A stretch of DNA of 6,833 nt from a virus (IMGVR_UViG_2663762857_000020), one strand, 5' to 3'. Positions 186 through 6,833 are shown, counted from the stretch's first letter. Numbers and translations are program-made. Notes: a model not told the origin generated them from the letters alone.

Positions 186-380
186 ATGACATTTATTCAT
201 CAGGTGATGCTGTACTTCTGTACGGCGGTCTGTGTGCTGTATCTTCTTTCGGGTGGGTACAGGGCAGTGCGCGATTTCTGGCGCAGGCAGATTGATAAAA
301 GGGCCGCAGAGAAAATCAGCGCCAGTCAGTCAGCCGGAGCAAAAACAGAAGCCCCACTCATTCCGGAACAACCTTCTTAA
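186..380 (+). CDS. Hypothetical small protein (64 aa) with one predicted N-terminal transmembrane helix
   Basis: ORF from the six-frame track; hydrophobic stretch VMLYFCTAVCVLYLLSGGY followed by a charged tail. No clear Shine-Dalgarno; no homolog recognised. Confidence 0.3.
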   Translation: MTFIHQVMLYFCTAVCVLYLLSGGYRAVRDFWRRQIDKRAAEKISASQSAGAKTEAPLIPEQPS

Positions 381-405
381 TAACCCCTTTCAACGAGAAA
401 ATCCT

Positions 406-696
406 ATGTCAGAAATAAAATCGCTGGTCACTGCTGAGGCAGTGAAGGAAGTCCTGCGCTCTGAAGAAGTCCGGAGCGCACTGAAACAGCAACTTCGGCA
501 GAACCTTGAGGCGCGTCTTGATGCAGAAGTGGATTCAATTCTGGATGAATTGCTTGGTGCACAGCCGGAACCATCCCCGGAACTGCTTCCGGAACCACAG
601 GCGGAAGATGTCACCACGGAAAATGGTGATATTCAGCCGGAGCCACCGGTGACGGATATGACAGACACACAGCCAGAATCGGGCACAATGCTGTAA
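406..696 (+). CDS. Hypothetical acidic protein (96 aa), helical N-terminal half and Pro/Glu-rich C-terminal half
   Basis: ATG at 406 preceded by a weak SD (GAG ~9 nt upstream). The track ORF 232..696 is the same frame with an upstream ATG lacking an RBS and overlapping the 186..380 ORF, so the 406 start is preferred. About 22 D/E versus 7 K/R by hand count. Confidence 0.5.
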   Translation: MSEIKSLVTAEAVKEVLRSEEVRSALKQQLRQNLEARLDAEVDSILDELLGAQPEPSPELLPEPQAEDVTTENGDIQPEPPVTDMTDTQPESGTML

Positions 697-991: not shown

Positions 992-1336
992 ATGAAGAAA
1001 AAATACGAACTGGTTGTTAAAGGGATAAATAATTACCCGAATAAGATTACTGTTACTGTGGCACTGGAAATTGGTGGGTATCCGTCACTGTTGTTGCCAG
1101 ATGTGGCGATTAGTCTTGACCGTACTGAAGATGCCACGCTGGAGTTTTACGAAGCTGAGGCGAAAAAGCAGGCGAAGCAGTTTTTCATGGATGTTGCTGC
1201 CGGGTTATGTGAAGGGGATGGTCCGTTGCCGGAAAAGCGCCCCGTAATTTTAGAGGCGCAGGATGTGTTGATAACCTACAGAGGAAAACTACCGGGAATA
1301 ATTACTGGTTCTCTGAAGACTCCACCGCTGGCCTGA
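992..1336 (+). CDS. Small hypothetical protein (114 aa) between holin and endolysin; tentatively DUF1327/YdfR-like
   Basis: ORF starts 4 nt after the holin stop, with GGGGAGAG upstream (translational coupling likely). It occupies the position of ydfR between essQ and rrrQ in the E. coli Qin prophage. The family assignment is from memory of gene order, not sequence comparison. Confidence 0.6.
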   Translation: MKKKYELVVKGINNYPNKITVTVALEIGGYPSLLLPDVAISLDRTEDATLEFYEAEAKKQAKQFFMDVAAGLCEGDGPLPEKRPVILEAQDVLITYRGKLPGIITGSLKTPPLA

Positions 1337-1386: not shown

Positions 1387-2424
1387 ATGAACACCAAAAT
1401 CAAATACGGCCTGTCGGCTGCCGTTCTGGCGCTGATTGCCGCAGGTGCGCCTGCGCCTGAAATCCTCGACCAGTTTCTGGATGAAAAGGAAGGTAACCAC
1501 ACCACGGCATACCGTGATGGCGCGGGTATCTGGACCATCTGCCGCGGTGCCATCCTGGTGGATAGTAAACCTGTCGTTCCGGGCATGAAGTTGTCGAAGG
1601 AAAAATGCGACCAGGTTAACGCCATTGAGCGTGATAAAGCGCTGGCGTGGGTGGAGAAAAACATCAGAGTGCCGCTGACCGAACCCCAGAAAGCGGGGAT
1701 CGCGTCATTCTGTCCGTACAACATTGGTCCCGGTAAGTGTTTCCCGTCGACGTTTTACAGACGAATTAATGCTGGTGATCGCAGGGGAGCATGCGAGGCG
1801 ATTCGCTGGTGGATTAAGGACGGTGAGCGGTATTTTTTCTGTAATGAGCTGAATGAAAAAGGGGAGCCGGTCACCTGGCAGGGGCGGCAATATCAGGCGT
1901 ACCCGATTGAGGGGAGTGGCTTTGAGATGAACGGAAAGGGCAGCAGTGCCCGCCCGTCGCTGACGGTGTCCAATCTTTTCGGCCTTGTCACCGGAATGGC
2001 GGAGGATTTGCAGAGCCTGGTGGGGGCCACGGTGGTCCGCCGCCGGGTGTATGCCCGTTTTCTGGATGCGGTGAATTTCGTTGCGGGCAATCCGGAAGCG
2101 GACCCGGAGCAGGAGCTGAGTGACCGCTGGGTGGTGGAGCAGATGTCGCAGCTGACAGCCATGACGGCCTCGTTTGTGCTGGCCACACCGACCGAGACGG
2201 ACGGGGCGCTGTTTCCCGGTCGTATCATGCTGGCGAACACCTGTATGTGGACCTACCGCTCTGATGAGTGTGGTTACACGGGCGGGGCTGTGGCGGATGA
2301 GTTCGATAAACCCACCACGGATATCCGTAAGGACAGATGCAGCAAGTGCATGCGCGGGTGTGAACTGCGCAGGAATGTCGGCAATTTTGGCGGTTTCCTT
2401 TCCATTAATAAACTTTCGCAGTAA
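1387..2424 (+). CDS. Chimeric ORF (345 aa): SAR-type lysozyme of the R21/RrrD family (T4-lysozyme-like, GH24), residues ~1-146, fused in frame to the C-terminal ~198 residues of lambda-type minor tail protein L
   Basis: N-terminus has a Gly/Ala-rich SAR segment (YGLSAAVLALIAAGAPAP) and the E-8aa-D-5aa-T catalytic spacing (E35, D44, T50 in EGNHTTAYRDGAGIWT). From ERYFFCNELNEKGEPVTWQGRQYQ to the C-terminal NVGNFGGFLSINKLSQ it matches recalled lambda L from about residue 33 onward, including the four C-terminal cysteines. Junction is at codons 146/147 (nt 1822-1827). The lysozyme C-terminus and the L N-terminus are both missing. Confidence 0.8.
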   Translation: MNTKIKYGLSAAVLALIAAGAPAPEILDQFLDEKEGNHTTAYRDGAGIWTICRGAILVDSKPVVPGMKLSKEKCDQVNAIERDKALAWVEKNIRVPLTEPQKAGIASFCPYNIGPGKCFPSTFYRRINAGDRRGACEAIRWWIKDGERYFFCNELNEKGEPVTWQGRQYQAYPIEGSGFEMNGKGSSARPSLTVSNLFGLVTGMAEDLQSLVGATVVRRRVYARFLDAVNFVAGNPEADPEQELSDRWVVEQMSQLTAMTASFVLATPTETDGALFPGRIMLANTCMWTYRSDECGYTGGAVADEFDKPTTDIRKDRCSKCMRGCELRRNVGNFGGFLSINKLSQ

Positions 2425-2434
2425 ATCCCGGTTT

Positions 2435-3178
2435 ATGACACAGACTGAATCAGCGATTCTGGCGCATGCCCGGCGGTGTGCGCCTGCGGAGTCGTGCGGC
2501 TTCGTGATAAGCACGCCGGAGGGCAACCAGTACCAGCCGTGCGTGAATATCTCTGCAGAGCCTGAGGCGTATTTTCGTATCGCACCGGAAGACTGGCTGC
2601 GGGCAGAGATGCAGGGGGAGATTGTGGCACTGGTCCACAGTCATCCCGGTGGTCTGCCCTGGCTGAGCGAGGCTGACCGGCGGCTGCAGATAAAAAGCGC
2701 ACTGCCCTGGTGGCTGGTCAGCCGGGGTGACATTCACAAATTCCGCTGTGTGCCACATCTGACAGGACGGCGCTTTGCGCACGGGGTGACGGACTGTTAC
2801 ACGCTGTTCCGGGATGCATACCATCTGGCAGGCATTGATATGCCGGATTTTCACCGTGAGGATGACTGGTGGTGCAACGGTCAGAACCTTTACCTGGACA
2901 ATATGGAGGAAACGGGCTTTTACCGGGTGCCCCTGTCCTCTGCACTGCCGGGCGATATCCTGCTGTGCTGCTTCGGCGCATCGGTGGCTAATCATGCCGC
3001 CATTTACTGCGGCAACGGTGAACTGCTTCACCATCTGCCTGAACAACTGAGTAAACGGGAGAGGTATTCCGAAAAATGGCAACGACGAACGCATTCTGTC
3101 TGGCGTCACCGCCACTGGCACGCATCTGCCTTCACGGGGATTTACAACGATTTGGCCGCCGCCTCAGCCTGTATGTGA
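2435..3178 (+). CDS. K: Tail tip assembly protein K (MPN/JAMM-like plus NlpC/P60-like domains), 247 aa
   Basis: Near-colinear match to recalled lambda K (MTQTESAILAHARRCAPAESCGFVISTPEG...). HSHPGGLPWLSEAD (HxH...S..D) JAMM-like motif, and NlpC/P60-type Cys (GVTDCYTLF) and His (NHAAIY). Starts 11 nt after the L-fusion stop. Confidence 0.9.
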   Translation: MTQTESAILAHARRCAPAESCGFVISTPEGNQYQPCVNISAEPEAYFRIAPEDWLRAEMQGEIVALVHSHPGGLPWLSEADRRLQIKSALPWWLVSRGDIHKFRCVPHLTGRRFAHGVTDCYTLFRDAYHLAGIDMPDFHREDDWWCNGQNLYLDNMEETGFYRVPLSSALPGDILLCCFGASVANHAAIYCGNGELLHHLPEQLSKRERYSEKWQRRTHSVWRHRHWHASAFTGIYNDLAAASACM

Positions 3179-3756
3179 ACACGGCAGCGGAAGCCATCCG
3201 CGCACTGTCGATGCAGGTGCCGGGCTTTCGCCGTCAGATGAACGAAGGCTGGTACCAGATACGCATTGCCGGTGAGGATACGGCACCGGAGGCGGTGTAT
3301 GCCCGCCTTCACGAACCACTGAGTGAGGGAACGGTTATCCATATTGTGCCGCGACTGGCCGGGGCCGGAAAGGGAGGACTGCAGATTGTGCTGGGGGCGG
3401 CAGCCATCGTGGGCTCTTTCCTCACTGCCGGTGCCTCGATGGCGTTATGGGGTACAGCCCTGAGTGCCGGCGGTTTTTCTGCCACCACGATGCTGTTTTC
3501 ACTGGGGGCCAGCATGATTCTGGGTGGTGTGGCCCAGATGCTGGCCCCGAAGGCAAAAACACCGGATTACCGCGCAACGGATAACGGCAGACAGAACACG
3601 TATTTTTCGTCACTGGACAACATGATTGCCCAGGGTAACCCGATGCCGGTGCCTTACGGGGAAATGCTGGTTGGCTCCCGCCGTATATCCCAGGACATCA
3701 GTACCCGTGATGAAGGCGGGTGCGGAAAGGTCGTGGTTATCGGGCGGCAGGGGTAA
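3076..3756 (+). CDS. I: Tail tip assembly protein I, 226 aa
   Basis: Matches recalled lambda I family (...LHGDLQRFGRRLSLYVNTAAEAIRALSMQVPGFRRQMNEGWYQIRIAGED...). Overlaps the 3' end of K by 103 nt in another frame, the same arrangement I recall for lambda K/I. SD GGGAGAGG at 3057-3064. Confidence 0.9.
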   Translation: MATTNAFCLASPPLARICLHGDLQRFGRRLSLYVNTAAEAIRALSMQVPGFRRQMNEGWYQIRIAGEDTAPEAVYARLHEPLSEGTVIHIVPRLAGAGKGGLQIVLGAAAIVGSFLTAGASMALWGTALSAGGFSATTMLFSLGASMILGGVAQMLAPKAKTPDYRATDNGRQNTYFSSLDNMIAQGNPMPVPYGEMLVGSRRISQDISTRDEGGCGKVVVIGRQG

Positions 3757-3760
3757 AAAG

Positions 3761-3798
3761 AATAAAAAAAATCCCGCAGTGATCGCGGAGCTGCGGGG
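3761..3798 (-). terminator. Rho-independent terminator, minus strand
   Basis: Minus-strand RNA reads CCCCGCAG-(11-nt loop)-CUGCGGG followed directly by UUUUUUUU (+ strand A-run 3763-3770). 7-bp GC-rich stem at 3773-3779 / 3791-3797. No U-tract follows the stem on the + strand. Confidence 0.7.
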
Positions 3799-3858
3799 AC
3801 AGACAAAGATTAGAGTTAAGGAGTTGTTTTTGTTACTCGGGCAAAAAAACACTAACGC
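3762..3858 (-). ncRNA. Candidate small RNA (~95 nt) in the I-J intergenic insert, antisense to the tail operon
   Basis: Bounded by the minus-strand promoter at 3865-3892 (predicted start near G at 3858) and the terminator at 3761-3798. No ATG in the transcribed segment. Predicted RNA has a 5' stem (GUUUUUU / AAAAAC), a single-stranded CA-rich and CU-rich region (AACAAAAACAACUCCUUAACUCUAAUCUUUGUCUGU) and a terminator with U-tail, the layout typical of Hfq-dependent sRNAs. Confidence 0.45.
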
Positions 3859-3864
3859 AGCGAA

Positions 3865-3892
3865 ATTATACGCGCCACAGTCAGTTTGTGAA
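3865..3892 (-). promoter_or_regulatory. Sigma70-type promoter, minus strand: -35 TTCACA, 16-bp spacer, -10 TATAAT
   Basis: Minus strand reads TTCACAaactgactgtggcgcgTATAAT. The -10 is a perfect consensus (+ strand 3865-3870), the -35 is 5/6 (+ strand 3887-3892), and a purine sits 7 nt downstream. Confidence 0.5.
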
Positions 3893-3964
3893 AATGTGAA
3901 GATATTCAGAATTTTTATGCCATTACCGGTTTTTACCAACAGGATTATCGGTGGACATGAAAGA

Positions 3965-3999
3965 AAACCCCGGTATCTGCTGATACCGGGGTTTCTCTT
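3965..3999. terminator. Strong GC-rich hairpin, terminator-like in both orientations
   Basis: Stem AAACCCCGGTATC (3965-3977) pairs with GATACCGGGGTTT (3982-3994) around a 4-nt loop TGCT. Followed on the + strand by TTTCTCTTT; on the minus strand the stem is followed by a U-rich stretch. A second short inverted repeat, AGCATG (4001-4006) / CATGCT (4021-4026), follows. Confidence 0.35.
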
Positions 4000-4097
4000 T
4001 AGCATGGCAGAAATGTGTTTCATGCTTTTCGGGCGAAGGATATCCGACTTCTGTACGGAATGGCAAGTGGCGGTTAATTTATTCAGGGGAAGGCTGT

Positions 4098-6833
4098 ATG
4101 GGAAAAGGTGGCGGTAAGGCACACACGCCTCGTGAGGCGAAGGATAATCTCAAATCCACGCAGATGATGAGCGTGATTGATGCGGTTGGTGAGGGACCGA
4201 TAGAAGGCCCGGTGAAGGGACTGCAGAGTATCCTGGTGAACAAAACCCCGCTGACGGACACGGACGGTAATCCCGTGATACACGGTGTGACGGCGGTCTG
4301 GCGCGCCGGGGAGCAGGAGCAGACACCACCGGAAGGCTTTGAGTCCTCCGGAGCTGAAACTGTACTGGGCGTGGAAGTGACGAAGGCAAAACCGGTGACG
4401 CGCACCATTACGTCCGCGAACATTGACCGCCTGCGGGTTACCTTCGGGGTGCAGTCACTGGTGCAGACCACGTCAAAGGGTGACCGAAACCCGACATCCG
4501 TCCGCCTGCTGATTCAGTTACAGCGTAACGGTAACTGGGTGACAGAAAAGGATGTCACCATTAACGGCAAGACCACCTCGCAGTTTCTGGCGTCGGTGAT
4601 TCTGGATAATCTGCCTCCCCGTCCTTTTAACATCCGGATGGTCCGGGAGACGGCGGACAGCACCACGGACCAGTTGCAGAACAGAACACTCTGGTCATCG
4701 TACACCGAAATCATCGATGTGAAACAGTGCTACCCGAACACGGCGATTGTGGGGCTGCAGGTGGATGCGGAGCAGTTCGGTGGTCAGCAGATGACGGTGA
4801 ACTACCATATCCGCGGTCGCATCATCCAGGTGCCGTCAAACTATGACCCGGAAAAACGCACCTACAGCGGTATCTGGGACGGCAGTCTGAAACCGGCATA
4901 CAGCAACAACCCGGCCTGGTGCCTGTGGGACATGCTGACTCACCCGCGCTACGGGATGGGAAAACGTCTGGGGGCGGCGGATGTGGACAAGTGGGCGCTG
5001 TATGCCATCGGGCAGTACTGCGACCAGACGGTCCCGGATGGTTTCGGGGGCACAGAGCCGCGGATGACCTTTAATGCGTACCTGGCACAACAGCGTAAGG
5101 CGTGGGACGTTCTCAGTGATTTCTGCTCGGCGATGCGCTGTATGCCGGTATGGAACGGCCAGACGCTGACGTTCGTTCAGGACCGCCCGTCGGATGTGGT
5201 GTGGCCGTACACCAACAGCGATGTGGTGGTGGATGATAACGGCGTGGGGTTCCGCTACAGCTTCAGTGCCCTGAAGGACCGGCACACGGCGGTGGAGGTG
5301 AATTACACCGACCCGCAGAACGGCTGGCAGACCTCCACGGAACTGGTGGAAGACCCGGAAGCCATACTGCGCTACGGACGCAACCTGCTGAAGATGGATG
5401 CGTTCGGCTGCACCAGTCGCGGTCAGGCCCACCGTGCCGGGCTGTGGGTGATAAAGACAGAACTGCTGGAAACGCAGACGGTGGATTTCACACTCGGGTC
5501 ACAGGGGCTGCGGCACACACCCGGTGACATCATTGAAATCTGTGATAACGACTATGCCGGAACCCTGACCGGCGGACGTGTCCTGTCCATTGATGCTGCC
5601 ACCCGCACCCTGACGCTGGACCGTGAAGTGACACTTCCGGGGACAGGTACATCGACGGTGAACCTGATTAACGGCAGCGGTAAGCCGGTGAGTGTGGACA
5701 TCACCGCACACCCCGCGCCGGACCGGATACAGGTCAGTACCCTGCCTGATGGTGTGGAGACATACGGGGTGTGGGGACTCTCCCTGCCGTCACTGCGCCG
5801 TCGCCTGTTCCGCTGTGTCTCCATCCGGGAAAACACGGACGGCACCTTTGCCATCACGGCGGTGCAGCACGTACCGGAAAAAGAAGCCATTGTGGATAAC
5901 GGAGCCCGCTTTGAGCCGCAGTCAGGCACCCTGAACAGCGTTATCCCACCGGCAGTACAGCACCTCACGGTGGAGGTGAGCGCAGCTGACAGCCAGTATC
6001 TGGCGCTGGCGAAATGGGACACGCCGAGGGTGGTGAAGGGCGTGCGCTTCAGTCTGCGCCTGACCAGTGGAAGCGATGAGAACAGCCGCCTGCTGACCAC
6101 CGCCATCACTGCCGATACGGAGCACCGTTTCAGTGGCCTGCCTCTCGGGGAATACACCCTGACGGTCAGGGCGATAAACAGCTACGGCCAGCAGGGCGAA
6201 CCGGCCACCACCACGTTCCGGATTAATGCGCCTGCAGCACCGGCCACCATTGAGCTGACGCCGGGGTATTTTCAGATAACGGCGGTACCGCGTCTTGCGG
6301 TGTATGACCCGACGGTGCAGTTTGAGTTCTGGTTTTCGGAGGCAAAAATTGCAGACGCCGCACAGGTGGAAACCTCTGCCCGTTATCTGGGGACCGGCAG
6401 TCAGTGGAGTGTCTCCGGTCCGCACATTAAGCCCGGAAAGGATTTCTGGTTTTATGTGCGCAGCGTCAACCTGGTGGGTAAATCTGCTTTTGTGGAAGCC
6501 AGTGGACGGGCGAGCAATGATGCTGCGGGCTATCTGGAACTTTTCCGGGAAAAGATAGGAAAAACGCATCTGGCAGAGGCGCTGTGGGCAGAGATTGACA
6601 ACAGTCAGCTGAAGGACGAGATGGCGGAAATGCAGACCACCATCACCGAAACCCGCAATGAAATCACACAGACGGTCAGTAAAACGCTGGAGGACCAGAG
6701 CGCCACCATACAGCAAATCCAGCGTGTGCAGACGGACACCCGTAATGACCTGAACAGCATGTGGGCGGTGAAGCTGCAGAAGATGCAGGACGGACGCCTT
6801 TATATTGCCGGTATTGGTGCAGGCATTGAGAAT
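4098..6833 (+). CDS. J: Tail tip / host specificity protein J, N-terminal 912 codons (3' end beyond the window)
   Basis: ATG at 4098 with SD AGGGGAAGG. Hand translation is open and in frame to the window end. Matches recalled lambda J from the N-terminus (MGKG..HTPREAKDNLKSTQ..) through conserved blocks (NPAWCLWDMLTHPRYGMGKRLGAADVDKWALY, RLFRCVSIRENTDGTFAITAVQHVPEKEAIVDNGA, VYDPTVQFEFWFSE). The last ~100 residues in the window diverge from lambda. Confidence 0.95.
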   Translation, partial: MGKGGGKAHTPREAKDNLKSTQMMSVIDAVGEGPIEGPVKGLQSILVNKTPLTDTDGNPVIHGVTAVWRAGEQEQTPPEGFESSGAETVLGVEVTKAKPVTRTITSANIDRLRVTFGVQSLVQTTSKGDRNPTSVRLLIQLQRNGNWVTEKDVTINGKTTSQFLASVILDNLPPRPFNIRMVRETADSTTDQLQNRTLWSSYTEIIDVKQCYPNTAIVGLQVDAEQFGGQQMTVNYHIRGRIIQVPSNYDPEKRTYSGIWDGSLKPAYSNNPAWCLWDMLTHPRYGMGKRLGAADVDKWALYAIGQYCDQTVPDGFGGTEPRMTFNAYLAQQRKAWDVLSDFCSAMRCMPVWNGQTLTFVQDRPSDVVWPYTNSDVVVDDNGVGFRYSFSALKDRHTAVEVNYTDPQNGWQTSTELVEDPEAILRYGRNLLKMDAFGCTSRGQAHRAGLWVIKTELLETQTVDFTLGSQGLRHTPGDIIEICDNDYAGTLTGGRVLSIDAATRTLTLDREVTLPGTGTSTVNLINGSGKPVSVDITAHPAPDRIQVSTLPDGVETYGVWGLSLPSLRRRLFRCVSIRENTDGTFAITAVQHVPEKEAIVDNGARFEPQSGTLNSVIPPAVQHLTVEVSAADSQYLALAKWDTPRVVKGVRFSLRLTSGSDENSRLLTTAITADTEHRFSGLPLGEYTLTVRAINSYGQQGEPATTTFRINAPAAPATIELTPGYFQITAVPRLAVYDPTVQFEFWFSEAKIADAAQVETSARYLGTGSQWSVSGPHIKPGKDFWFYVRSVNLVGKSAFVEASGRASNDAAGYLELFREKIGKTHLAEALWAEIDNSQLKDEMAEMQTTITETRNEITQTVSKTLEDQSATIQQIQRVQTDTRNDLNSMWAVKLQKMQDGRLYIAGIGAGIEN

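Follow-up and report, generated by a model that had tools for sequence, protein, structure and literature searches.

Five prophage sRNAs have been found by Hfq RIL-seq in EPEC E2348/69 (Pearl Mizrahi et al., Sci Adv 2021, PMC8550237). One of them, PasB (pathogenicity-associated sRNA B, E2348CN_0006), belongs to the O127:H6 strain E2348/69 (PMC8550237) and is encoded in prophage PP6 on the minus strand of NC_011601.1, between coordinates 1466343 and 1466261 (83 nt), with AATCCCGCAGTGATCGCGGAGCT as its Northern probe (PMC8550237, table S6). On Northern blots PasB of E2348/69 has been seen at the predicted size of ~83 nt, its stability requires Hfq, as judged from an hfq deletion, and its level is higher in the non-activating growth condition (PMC8550237). 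The RIL-seq experiments were carried out on uninduced lysogens; PasB was present in 258 chimeric fragments under activating and in 1,820 under non-activating conditions, and was the second RNA in 100% and 98.7% of them, respectively (PMC8550237). The 37 partners comprise 30 located in CDS or 5′UTRs, four in 3′UTRs or intergenic regions and no sRNAs (PMC8550237, table S5). Among the partners recorded in the non-activating condition are E2348C_2648, the 5′UTRs of napF and tolC, yhhX, hflX, fabR, ygeV, raiA, ftsZ, caiF and rplX as well as the virulence genes map, espC and bfpB (PMC8550237). We have found no publication that reports a regulatory effect of PasB on any of its targets. A survey of complete genomes has reported 1,158 PasB hits, restricted to Escherichia and Shigella, and has described PasB as the least diverse of the Pas RNAs, embedded in a phage structural-gene operon, often situated outside the prophage regions called by PHASTER and often the sole Pas gene in strains that are neither EPEC nor EHEC (Zhu, Shabalina & Storz, bioRxiv 2026, doi 10.64898/2026.05.13.724894).

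Two further groups of elements are relevant for comparison. AgvB and AsxR, from EHEC prophages, are sRNAs of 51-60 nt with a conserved 3′ region, encoded as a convergent pair at the Q/stx moron site, downstream of PR′, and their partners are core sRNAs (GcvB and FnrS), whereas those of PasB are mRNAs (Tree et al., Mol Cell 2014, PMC4104026; PMC8550237). Lambdoid morons have been described, in the work of Juhala et al. (2000) as it is cited in PMC4104026, as autonomous promoter-gene-terminator units inserted in late operons.

In this work we have analyzed a stretch of 6,833 nucleotides of viral DNA (IMGVR_UViG_2663762857_000020), referred to below as the window. An earlier reading made without database searches (the sequence-only reading) had proposed that an AT-rich insert of ~340 bp between the tail genes I and J, where lambda has ~60 bp, harbors a small-RNA gene antisense to the tail operon, a moron-like unit with its own sigma70 promoter. 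The stretch pointed out in this way is a copy of the published Hfq-dependent sRNA PasB, an allelic variant and not a new gene; reading of the raw sequence alone had located a real sRNA gene, validated experimentally in E2348/69.

According to Pfam, the plus strand of the window encodes the distal part of a lambdoid prophage tail operon (Table 1). Since the product of I is similar to that of lambda over the full length and has the same stop position, the gap which follows it is a true intergenic region. It was measured as 341 bp in comparison to 60 bp in lambda (I end 15444, J start 15505), with a GC content of 0.40-0.475 inside the gap and 0.55-0.62 in the flanking sequence, so both the size and the base composition ascribed to the insert have been confirmed. 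A deletion has removed genes of the surrounding prophage, from the lysis region as far as the tail gene L, and has left a lysozyme-L fusion. This deletion should leave the sigma70 promoter of pasB unaffected.

Table 1 Features of the window (positions counted from its first nucleotide)
Feature	Position	Strand	Basis
L, C-terminal part	ORF 1387-2424	plus	Pfam
K	within 2174-3178	plus	Pfam
Tail assembly gene I	3076-3756	plus	Pfam Lambda_tail_I; 65% identity to lambda I end to end
pasB gene, window variant; predicted 95-nt primary transcript from G 3858 to the end of the U-tract	3764-3858	minus	probe match and alignment
Intrinsic terminator: CCCGCAG/CUGCGGG stem, 11-nt loop, A, U8	3764-3797	minus	scan and fold
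Middle region CUCCUUAACUCUAAUCUUUGUCUGU, predicted single-stranded, putative seed	3799-3823	minus	alignment, duplex energies; E2348/69 has CUCCUUCACAUUGAUCUUCAUUUGUCUGU
(ARN)5 motif AGU-AAC-AAA-AAC-AAC, candidate Hfq distal-face site	3823-3837	minus	shuffles and family conservation
-10 hexamer TATAAT	3865-3870	minus	promoter scan
-35 hexamer TTCACA	3887-3892	minus	promoter scan; also in E2348/69
Upstream block ATAAAAATTCTGAATATCTTCACATTTT	3891-3918	minus	nearly invariant over all lineages (35-variant alignment)
Very stable hairpin of >20 bp with U-rich flanks, resembling a terminator in either direction	3957-4003		fold z = -7.2 (minus), -5.1 (plus)
Tail tip / host specificity gene J, 5′ part, 912 codons	4098-6833, ATG 4098	plus	Pfam FNIII-A_GpJ, Phage-tail_3, Ig_J

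The PasB Northern probe matches positions 3770-3792 of the window exactly and nowhere else in it. In E2348/69 pasB lies between the genes annotated as 'tail assembly protein' (end 1466255) and 'gpJ' (start 1466496), on the opposite strand, and the window has the same synteny and orientation; on the probe match and the I-J synteny the predicted antisense gene has been identified as pasB. Alignment of the two loci showed that the upstream block, the -35 and -10 hexamers and the first ~58 transcribed nucleotides, which include the (ARN)5 motif and CUCCUU, are identical, and that the spacer between the hexamers differs by one base. The terminator is also identical, with a U-tract one U longer in the window. 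The segment preceding the terminator reads CUCCUUAACUCUAAUC----UUUG in the window versus CUCCUUCACAUUGAUCUUCAUUUG in E2348/69, i.e. it has undergone a 4-nt deletion and five substitutions. Because the differences from E2348/69 are confined to this segment, the window element is to be regarded as an allele of the known gene. The part of the I-J spacer between the promoter and J is represented by a different sequence module in each of the two loci.

PasB is not included in Rfam 15, so a search limited to this database would label the element as unknown: the whole window at the gathering threshold and the gap at E <= 10 gave no family, only sub-threshold chance matches, such as Hrs1 with 22 bits in relation to its threshold of 56 bits. 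Searching the texts of papers for literal PasB sequence strings gave no match.

The TTCACA-16-TATAAT promoter that had been proposed for the minus strand was found at 3892-3865, with 11 of the 12 positions matching the consensus and with G at 3858 as the canonical +1. The terminator, which the sequence-only reading had placed next to the I stop codon, consists of a 7-bp stem (arms 3797-3791 and 3779-3773) and U8 at 3771-3764, and ends 7 nt from this codon. Taken by itself, the window has promoter and terminator matches only ~3x more frequent than expected from shuffles; the strong evidence for both is that they have been conserved in 147 phage records and in ~1,650 genomes of E. coli. With its own promoter and terminator, at a site where the lambda gap has 60 bp, pasB does form the moron-like unit that had been suggested. 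It resembles morons as an extra autonomous unit inserted between adjacent genes of a late operon, and differs from the classic ones in its cargo, which is a non-coding RNA antisense to the operon and not a protein gene. It also resembles AgvB, AsxR and EcOnc03, being prophage-encoded, Hfq-associated, short, moron-like and equipped with its own promoter and terminator.

No AUG is present in the 95-nt RNA, in agreement with the earlier statement that the predicted transcript lacks a start codon. The transcript length of ~95 nt suggested before is close to the published value but exceeds the 83 nt given for E2348/69, the published 5′ end of which corresponds to position 3843 of the window; the +1 predicted by the position of the -10 hexamer is 15 nt further upstream. 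The figure of 83 nt is an estimate based on read coverage and Northern size, and the discrepancy points either to imprecision of this estimate or to processing of the RNA. The sequence between 3858 and 3843, GCGUUA followed by a U-run, is kept across lineages. The fold of the 95-nt RNA is not unusually stable in comparison with shuffles (z = -1.35). In the minimum-energy structure the U-run at 3843-3849 pairs with the CA/A-rich stretch, so the latter is not clearly free, which qualifies its description as unstructured. A 5′ hairpin formed by the U-run and the A-run appears in most single-sequence folds; it is a low-complexity pairing with an unreliable alignment register and we do not claim it as a feature of the RNA.

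Class II Hfq-dependent sRNAs, of the ChiX, MgrR and CyaR type, are strongly dependent on Hfq, and the ARN-repeat motif is the binding site for the distal face of this protein. The CA-rich stretch AGUAACAAAAACAAC (3837-3823) is composed of five consecutive A-R-N triplets; (ARN)5 was reached in none of 500 shuffles, and 21 of 22 family variants retain a run of at least three triplets although their sequences have changed. The U-tail of the terminator is presumed to be the proximal-face site. The presence of (ARN)5 together with the U8 tail suggests that the pasB RNA is a class II-type Hfq sRNA, and the CA-rich stretch is better read as a candidate Hfq-binding motif. Like ChiX, MgrR and CyaR, PasB has ARN repeats 5′ of a U-tailed terminator, its class being assigned here from sequence motifs.

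The region of PasB involved in pairing was approached with 11 of the 37 partner sites, taken from the E2348/69 genome and compared with 100 mononucleotide shuffles per target. Duplex energies were calculated in windows of 12 nt of PasB and 16 nt of target; unrestricted RNAduplex gave meaningless full-length structures with large loops. Many of the 11 sites are located at start codons or gene junctions (caiF, tolC, ydbJ, napF, the fabR/yijD and smg/yrdD junctions and the end of E2348C_2648). For nine of the partners the best contact falls within nt 32-61 of E2348/69 PasB, in ACAACUCCUUCACAUUGAUCUUCAUUUG, and the best local duplexes cluster on the segment that precedes the terminator, with contiguous pairing of 12 bp for napF, 11 bp for each of fabR and tolC and 10 bp for ydbJ. 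It is in this region alone that the mean energy profile exceeds that of the shuffled targets, by 1-2 kcal/mol; the CA-rich stretch and the 5′ part of PasB gave no pairing gain over shuffled targets for these 11 partners. When the E2348/69 seed was subjected to the shuffle test, five of the 11 partners individually reached p <= 0.04 and the combined p was 6e-5. From these energies we infer that the seed of E2348/69 PasB lies in CUCCUUCACAUUGAUCUUCAUUUG. CUCCUU would then constitute the 5′ edge of the putative seed rather than a stand-alone anti-Shine-Dalgarno element. Its earlier interpretation as an anti-Shine-Dalgarno motif holds to the extent that it borders the best-pairing region and that several partners are contacted at ribosome-binding sites, but not as regards an element acting on its own.

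The pairing region of the characterised allele is not shared by the window allele, and the identity of the gene is unaffected by this. The mean best duplex with the 11 partner sites was -9.4 kcal/mol for the window allele and -13.2 kcal/mol for the E2348/69 allele. Shuffled partners gave a mean of -10.3 kcal/mol, which places the pairing of the window allele at chance level, this baseline serving only as a rough guide for the window allele since the shuffled targets were tested against the E2348/69 seed. As the putative seed region is altered in relation to E2348/69, the target set of the window allele may differ; the allele probably does not share the target set of E2348/69, and from the seed substitutions and the 4-nt deletion we infer a partly different one. 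Variation in this part of the gene extends beyond the two alleles. The middle segment occurs in seven forms among 84 IMG/VR contigs with enough flanking sequence, and the proportion of polymorphic columns amounts to 33% in this segment, 3-17% in the remaining parts of pasB and 14% in the neighboring end of I, the figure for the terminator being distorted (its conservation inflated) by the choice of loci through an exact terminator match. Since PasB alleles vary mainly in the putative seed, lysogens may differ in the host mRNAs which are targeted.

The element at 3764-3858 on the minus strand is thus very probably a copy of pasB acting as a prophage-borne, Hfq-dependent, trans-acting base-pairing sRNA, carried as an I-J moron antisense to the late operon, with its own sigma70 promoter and U8 terminator and with the Hfq and seed arrangement outlined above. 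Host sigma70 RNA polymerase would transcribe pasB whether or not the phage late genes are transcribed, starting at the promoter of pasB itself, and the U8 intrinsic terminator would end the transcript. Hfq would bind the terminator U-tail and (ARN)5 in a class II-like manner, and the predicted single-stranded region CUCCUU...UUUGUCUG, located between the ARN motif and the terminator, would pair with mRNAs, often at or near their ribosome-binding sites.

It is unlikely that PasB functions primarily as a cis-antisense regulator of its own tail operon, tuning J and the downstream genes at induction by cleavage of the late mRNA or by convergent-transcription interference, and an activity of this kind may add to the trans role. 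The geometry makes PasB a perfect complement of the I-J spacer in the polycistronic late mRNA, and in lytic growth an antisense effect in cis on this mRNA would, for geometrical reasons, be unavoidable. The position and antisense orientation of pasB are invariant in 8/8 annotated phage genomes and in E2348/69, in any lineage. This fixed synteny is, however, equally well explained by one ancient insertion carried along with tail-module recombination. The numerous trans partners of PasB also argue against the cis role, as does its persistence and expression in degraded prophages in which late transcription is not expected (the window; Zhu et al., doi 10.64898/2026.05.13.724894).

The window prophage lacks the genes from the lysis region to L, and the window allele differs in the putative seed and pairs with the known partners at chance level only. 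Such features would be expected of an inert relic, a seed-deleted and non-functional allele in a decaying prophage in which promoter-like and terminator-like sequences have simply been retained, but the -35 and -10 hexamers, the upstream block, (ARN)5 and the terminator are all intact and the same as in the expressed E2348/69 allele. Moreover, the window form of the middle region was found in nine of the 84 IMG/VR loci and also in intact prophages such as UPEC-245U, and is therefore to be taken as an established variant rather than as a lesion peculiar to this genome. We consider the relic quite improbable, and the functional trans-acting PasB remains the preferred reading.

The sequence-only reading had also suggested that the CA-rich stretch could pair with core sRNAs such as GcvB as a sponge-type anti-sRNA; PasB would then mimic GcvB targets and titrate GcvB or a different core sRNA in the manner of AgvB and AsxR. 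Prophage anti-sRNAs are known in EHEC, AACAAAAACAAC loosely resembles the CA-rich target sites of GcvB, and the best predicted contact of PasB on GcvB falls in the R1 region. In the EPEC RIL-seq data, however, PasB has no sRNA partners and the sole sRNA partner of GcvB is SroC (PMC8550237). PasB takes the second position in 99-100% of the chimeras that include it, which is the behavior of an sRNA and not of a target or sponge. Pairing was calculated with windowed duplex energies (14 nt by 18 nt) against gcvB of E2348/69. The best PasB-GcvB duplex, of -9.1 kcal/mol, is interrupted by an internal loop and is weaker than those of 60 out of 60 PasB shuffles; the 5′ region of AgvB, used as the positive control, gave -16.6 kcal/mol with 13 contiguous bp on R1, its own shuffles averaging -11.3 ± 2.1. 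The pasB element does not contain CACAACA, the consensus of GcvB R1 targets, occupies a different prophage site (I-J) than AgvB and AsxR, and has no match to them either in Rfam (RF02702/RF02703, E <= 10) or in the published sequences, including the ~42-nt 3′ region. The sponge proposal is largely refuted for the E2348/69 allele, and as an explanation of the window element it is very improbable. The likeness of PasB to AgvB and AsxR extends to the combination of a conserved scaffold with a variable pairing segment.

It is barely credible that the gap encodes a small protein (ORFs 3626-4117 on the plus strand, 3610-4122 or 3923-4066 on the minus strand), for although mechanical ORFs of 163, 170 and 47 aa run across it and the annotation of a few genome records includes a 'hypothetical protein' at this place, the gap-spanning ORFs have no Pfam match and are missing from E2348/69, so that no conserved plus-strand protein was found, and close variants carry 1-nt and 4-nt indels, which would disrupt the ORFs, and have whole spacer modules exchanged.

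The whole 342-bp I-J spacer was detected in 1,649 of the 5,426 complete E. coli genomes searched (median one copy each), and an exact search with the terminator identified 91 prophage contigs in IMG/VR, with 25 distinct promoter and gene sequences. A sensitive search revealed 147 phage records with a homologue over the whole 155-nt unit of promoter and gene (71-95% identity), the majority of them being Stx1a-, Stx2a- and Stx2c-converting phages; the diverged lineages, with 71-82% identity, include Stx1a, Stx2a, Stx2c and Stx2d phages, BP-4795, YYZ-2008 and CP-1639. Ten diverse phage genomes were examined. Seven have annotated I and J genes flanking the unit, which runs on the opposite strand; in Stx2a_WGPS2 it is bordered by the tail assembly gene and, in the place of J, by a transposase, and two records have no annotation at the site, so in all of the annotated ones the unit adjoins or separates tail genes on the opposite strand. 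Most long-tailed Stx phages have a diverged PasB relative at this position. Across four lineages the terminator stem does not vary, and its loop differs in sequence and length among the ten genomes. RNAalifold applied to 22 family members recovers only the terminator and detects no covariation, as the stem never varies. A contig search with the pattern CCCGCAG-N9-17-CTGCGGGATTTTTT returned at least 120 loci, which were unrelated, none with PasB homology among the matches listed; the pattern is that of a generic terminator and the search is therefore uninformative on host range.

Tentatively, the I-J gap of long-tailed lambdoid phages could be viewed as the site of one broad sRNA family extending beyond the near-identical PasB alleles, with a fixed scaffold and an exchangeable pairing segment, in which alleles such as that of the window would give each lysogen its own regulon. 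The scaffold would comprise the invariant, possibly CRP-responsive upstream block, the -10 hexamer, the ARN motif and the terminator stem.

A -10-like hexamer (TATAAT, AATAAT, GATAAT or TATCAT) is found at the same position in all four lineages. The block ATAAAA(A/T)TTCTGAAT(A/T)TCTTCACATTT, situated 5′ of the -35 hexamer, is almost invariant in these lineages, more so than the -35 itself. It contains a CRP-like sequence, TCTGA-N6-TCACA, at 3895-3910, with its centre at about -44.5 from the predicted +1, 3 bp off the classical class II position. This is the sole match of the window to TGTGA-N6-TCACA with at most one mismatch, and 41 of 200 shuffles also have one; as the pattern match by itself is not significant, the assignment as a CRP site is put forward only as a hypothesis, resting on the cross-lineage invariance. 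A CRP site in the upstream block would fit the higher level of PasB in the non-activating condition. The PasB gene being already known, the points that are left, allele variation in the putative seed and the wider family in Stx phages, are modest; together with the CRP-like block they provide modest leads, and the understanding of prophage sRNAs is not changed by them.

The spacer module of the window carries one more structure, the stable hairpin located between the pasB promoter and J, outside the pasB RNA (Table 1). It is present in 1,445 genomes, with a median of one copy, and it invariably accompanies this spacer.

The block upstream of the -35 hexamer of pasB, the gene of the Hfq-dependent prophage sRNA (3891-3918), is nearly invariant in all four lineages of PasB-like genes and is more conserved among them than the -35 hexamer itself. 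It includes a CRP-like motif, TCTGA-N6-TCACA, centred at about -44.5. Many Stx-converting phages and their relatives carry a PasB-like gene of 71-85% identity in the I-J gap; they are represented here by PhiR5_1, Stx2c_JNE072859, JLK-2012, CP-1639, Stx1_132418, BP-4795, YYZ-2008, Stx2d_112808, Stx2a_WGPS2 and Stx1a_10314 (L095-L104). Among these ten genes the scaffold is the same, and the middle segment and the loop of the terminator differ. Stx2a_WGPS2 has a transposase gene directly upstream of its PasB-like gene, at the position expected for J.

The pasB start predicted from the -10 hexamer is 3858, which lies 15 nt upstream of 3843, the equivalent of the published PasB 5′ end. If transcription started a few nucleotides further upstream of 3858, the 5′ GCUGCG of the RNA would be complementary to CGCAGC in the 5′ arm of the terminator. 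In that case the RNA could fold instead into a smaller second hairpin, UCCGCG/UGCGGG.

Every type of spacer seen in the I-J gap carries some hairpin between pasB and J. That of the window is of extreme stability (z = -7.2 on the minus strand and -5.1 on the plus strand) and is flanked on either side by U-rich runs, resembling a bidirectional terminator. It is present in 1,445 genomes, in each case together with the window's spacer, and it is no dispersed repeat. In L034, an IMG/VR prophage locus, exactly 47 nt including this hairpin are missing, and the missing piece is bounded by TTTCT repeats. Alternative spacer modules have at the equivalent place a different hairpin, CAGGCACC...GGTGCCTG, followed on the plus strand by TTGTTTTT, an arrangement resembling a terminator on the plus strand, shortly ahead of J.

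Features of the I-J spacers and of the lysis-tail junction
Feature	Location	Description
Hairpin, window spacer type	window 3957-4003	stem >20 bp, between pasB promoter and J
Alternative hairpin CAGGCACC...GGTGCCTG	L001 (E2348/69) 1880-1960	also in L007, L040 and other IMG/VR loci
DUF826 ORF	window 232-696	lysis-region gene upstream of the fusion ORF
DUF1327 ORF	window 992-1336	lysis-region gene upstream of the fusion ORF
Lysozyme-L fusion ORF	window 1387-2424	N-terminal Phage_lysozyme (aa 33-147) in frame with Phage_tail_L (aa 146-343)

Within positions 1-2424, the homology of the window to intact prophages starts at about 1817, and nothing before this point is aligned. The junction near 1817 seems to reflect a deletion of all that lay from the end of the lysis cassette to tail gene M, which would render the prophage defective; pasB, K, I and J are still intact despite this apparent loss. 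Antisense to the lysozyme-L fusion, an ORF of 127 aa with an ATG start is found on the minus strand (1341-1724); it has no Pfam match and is probably spurious.
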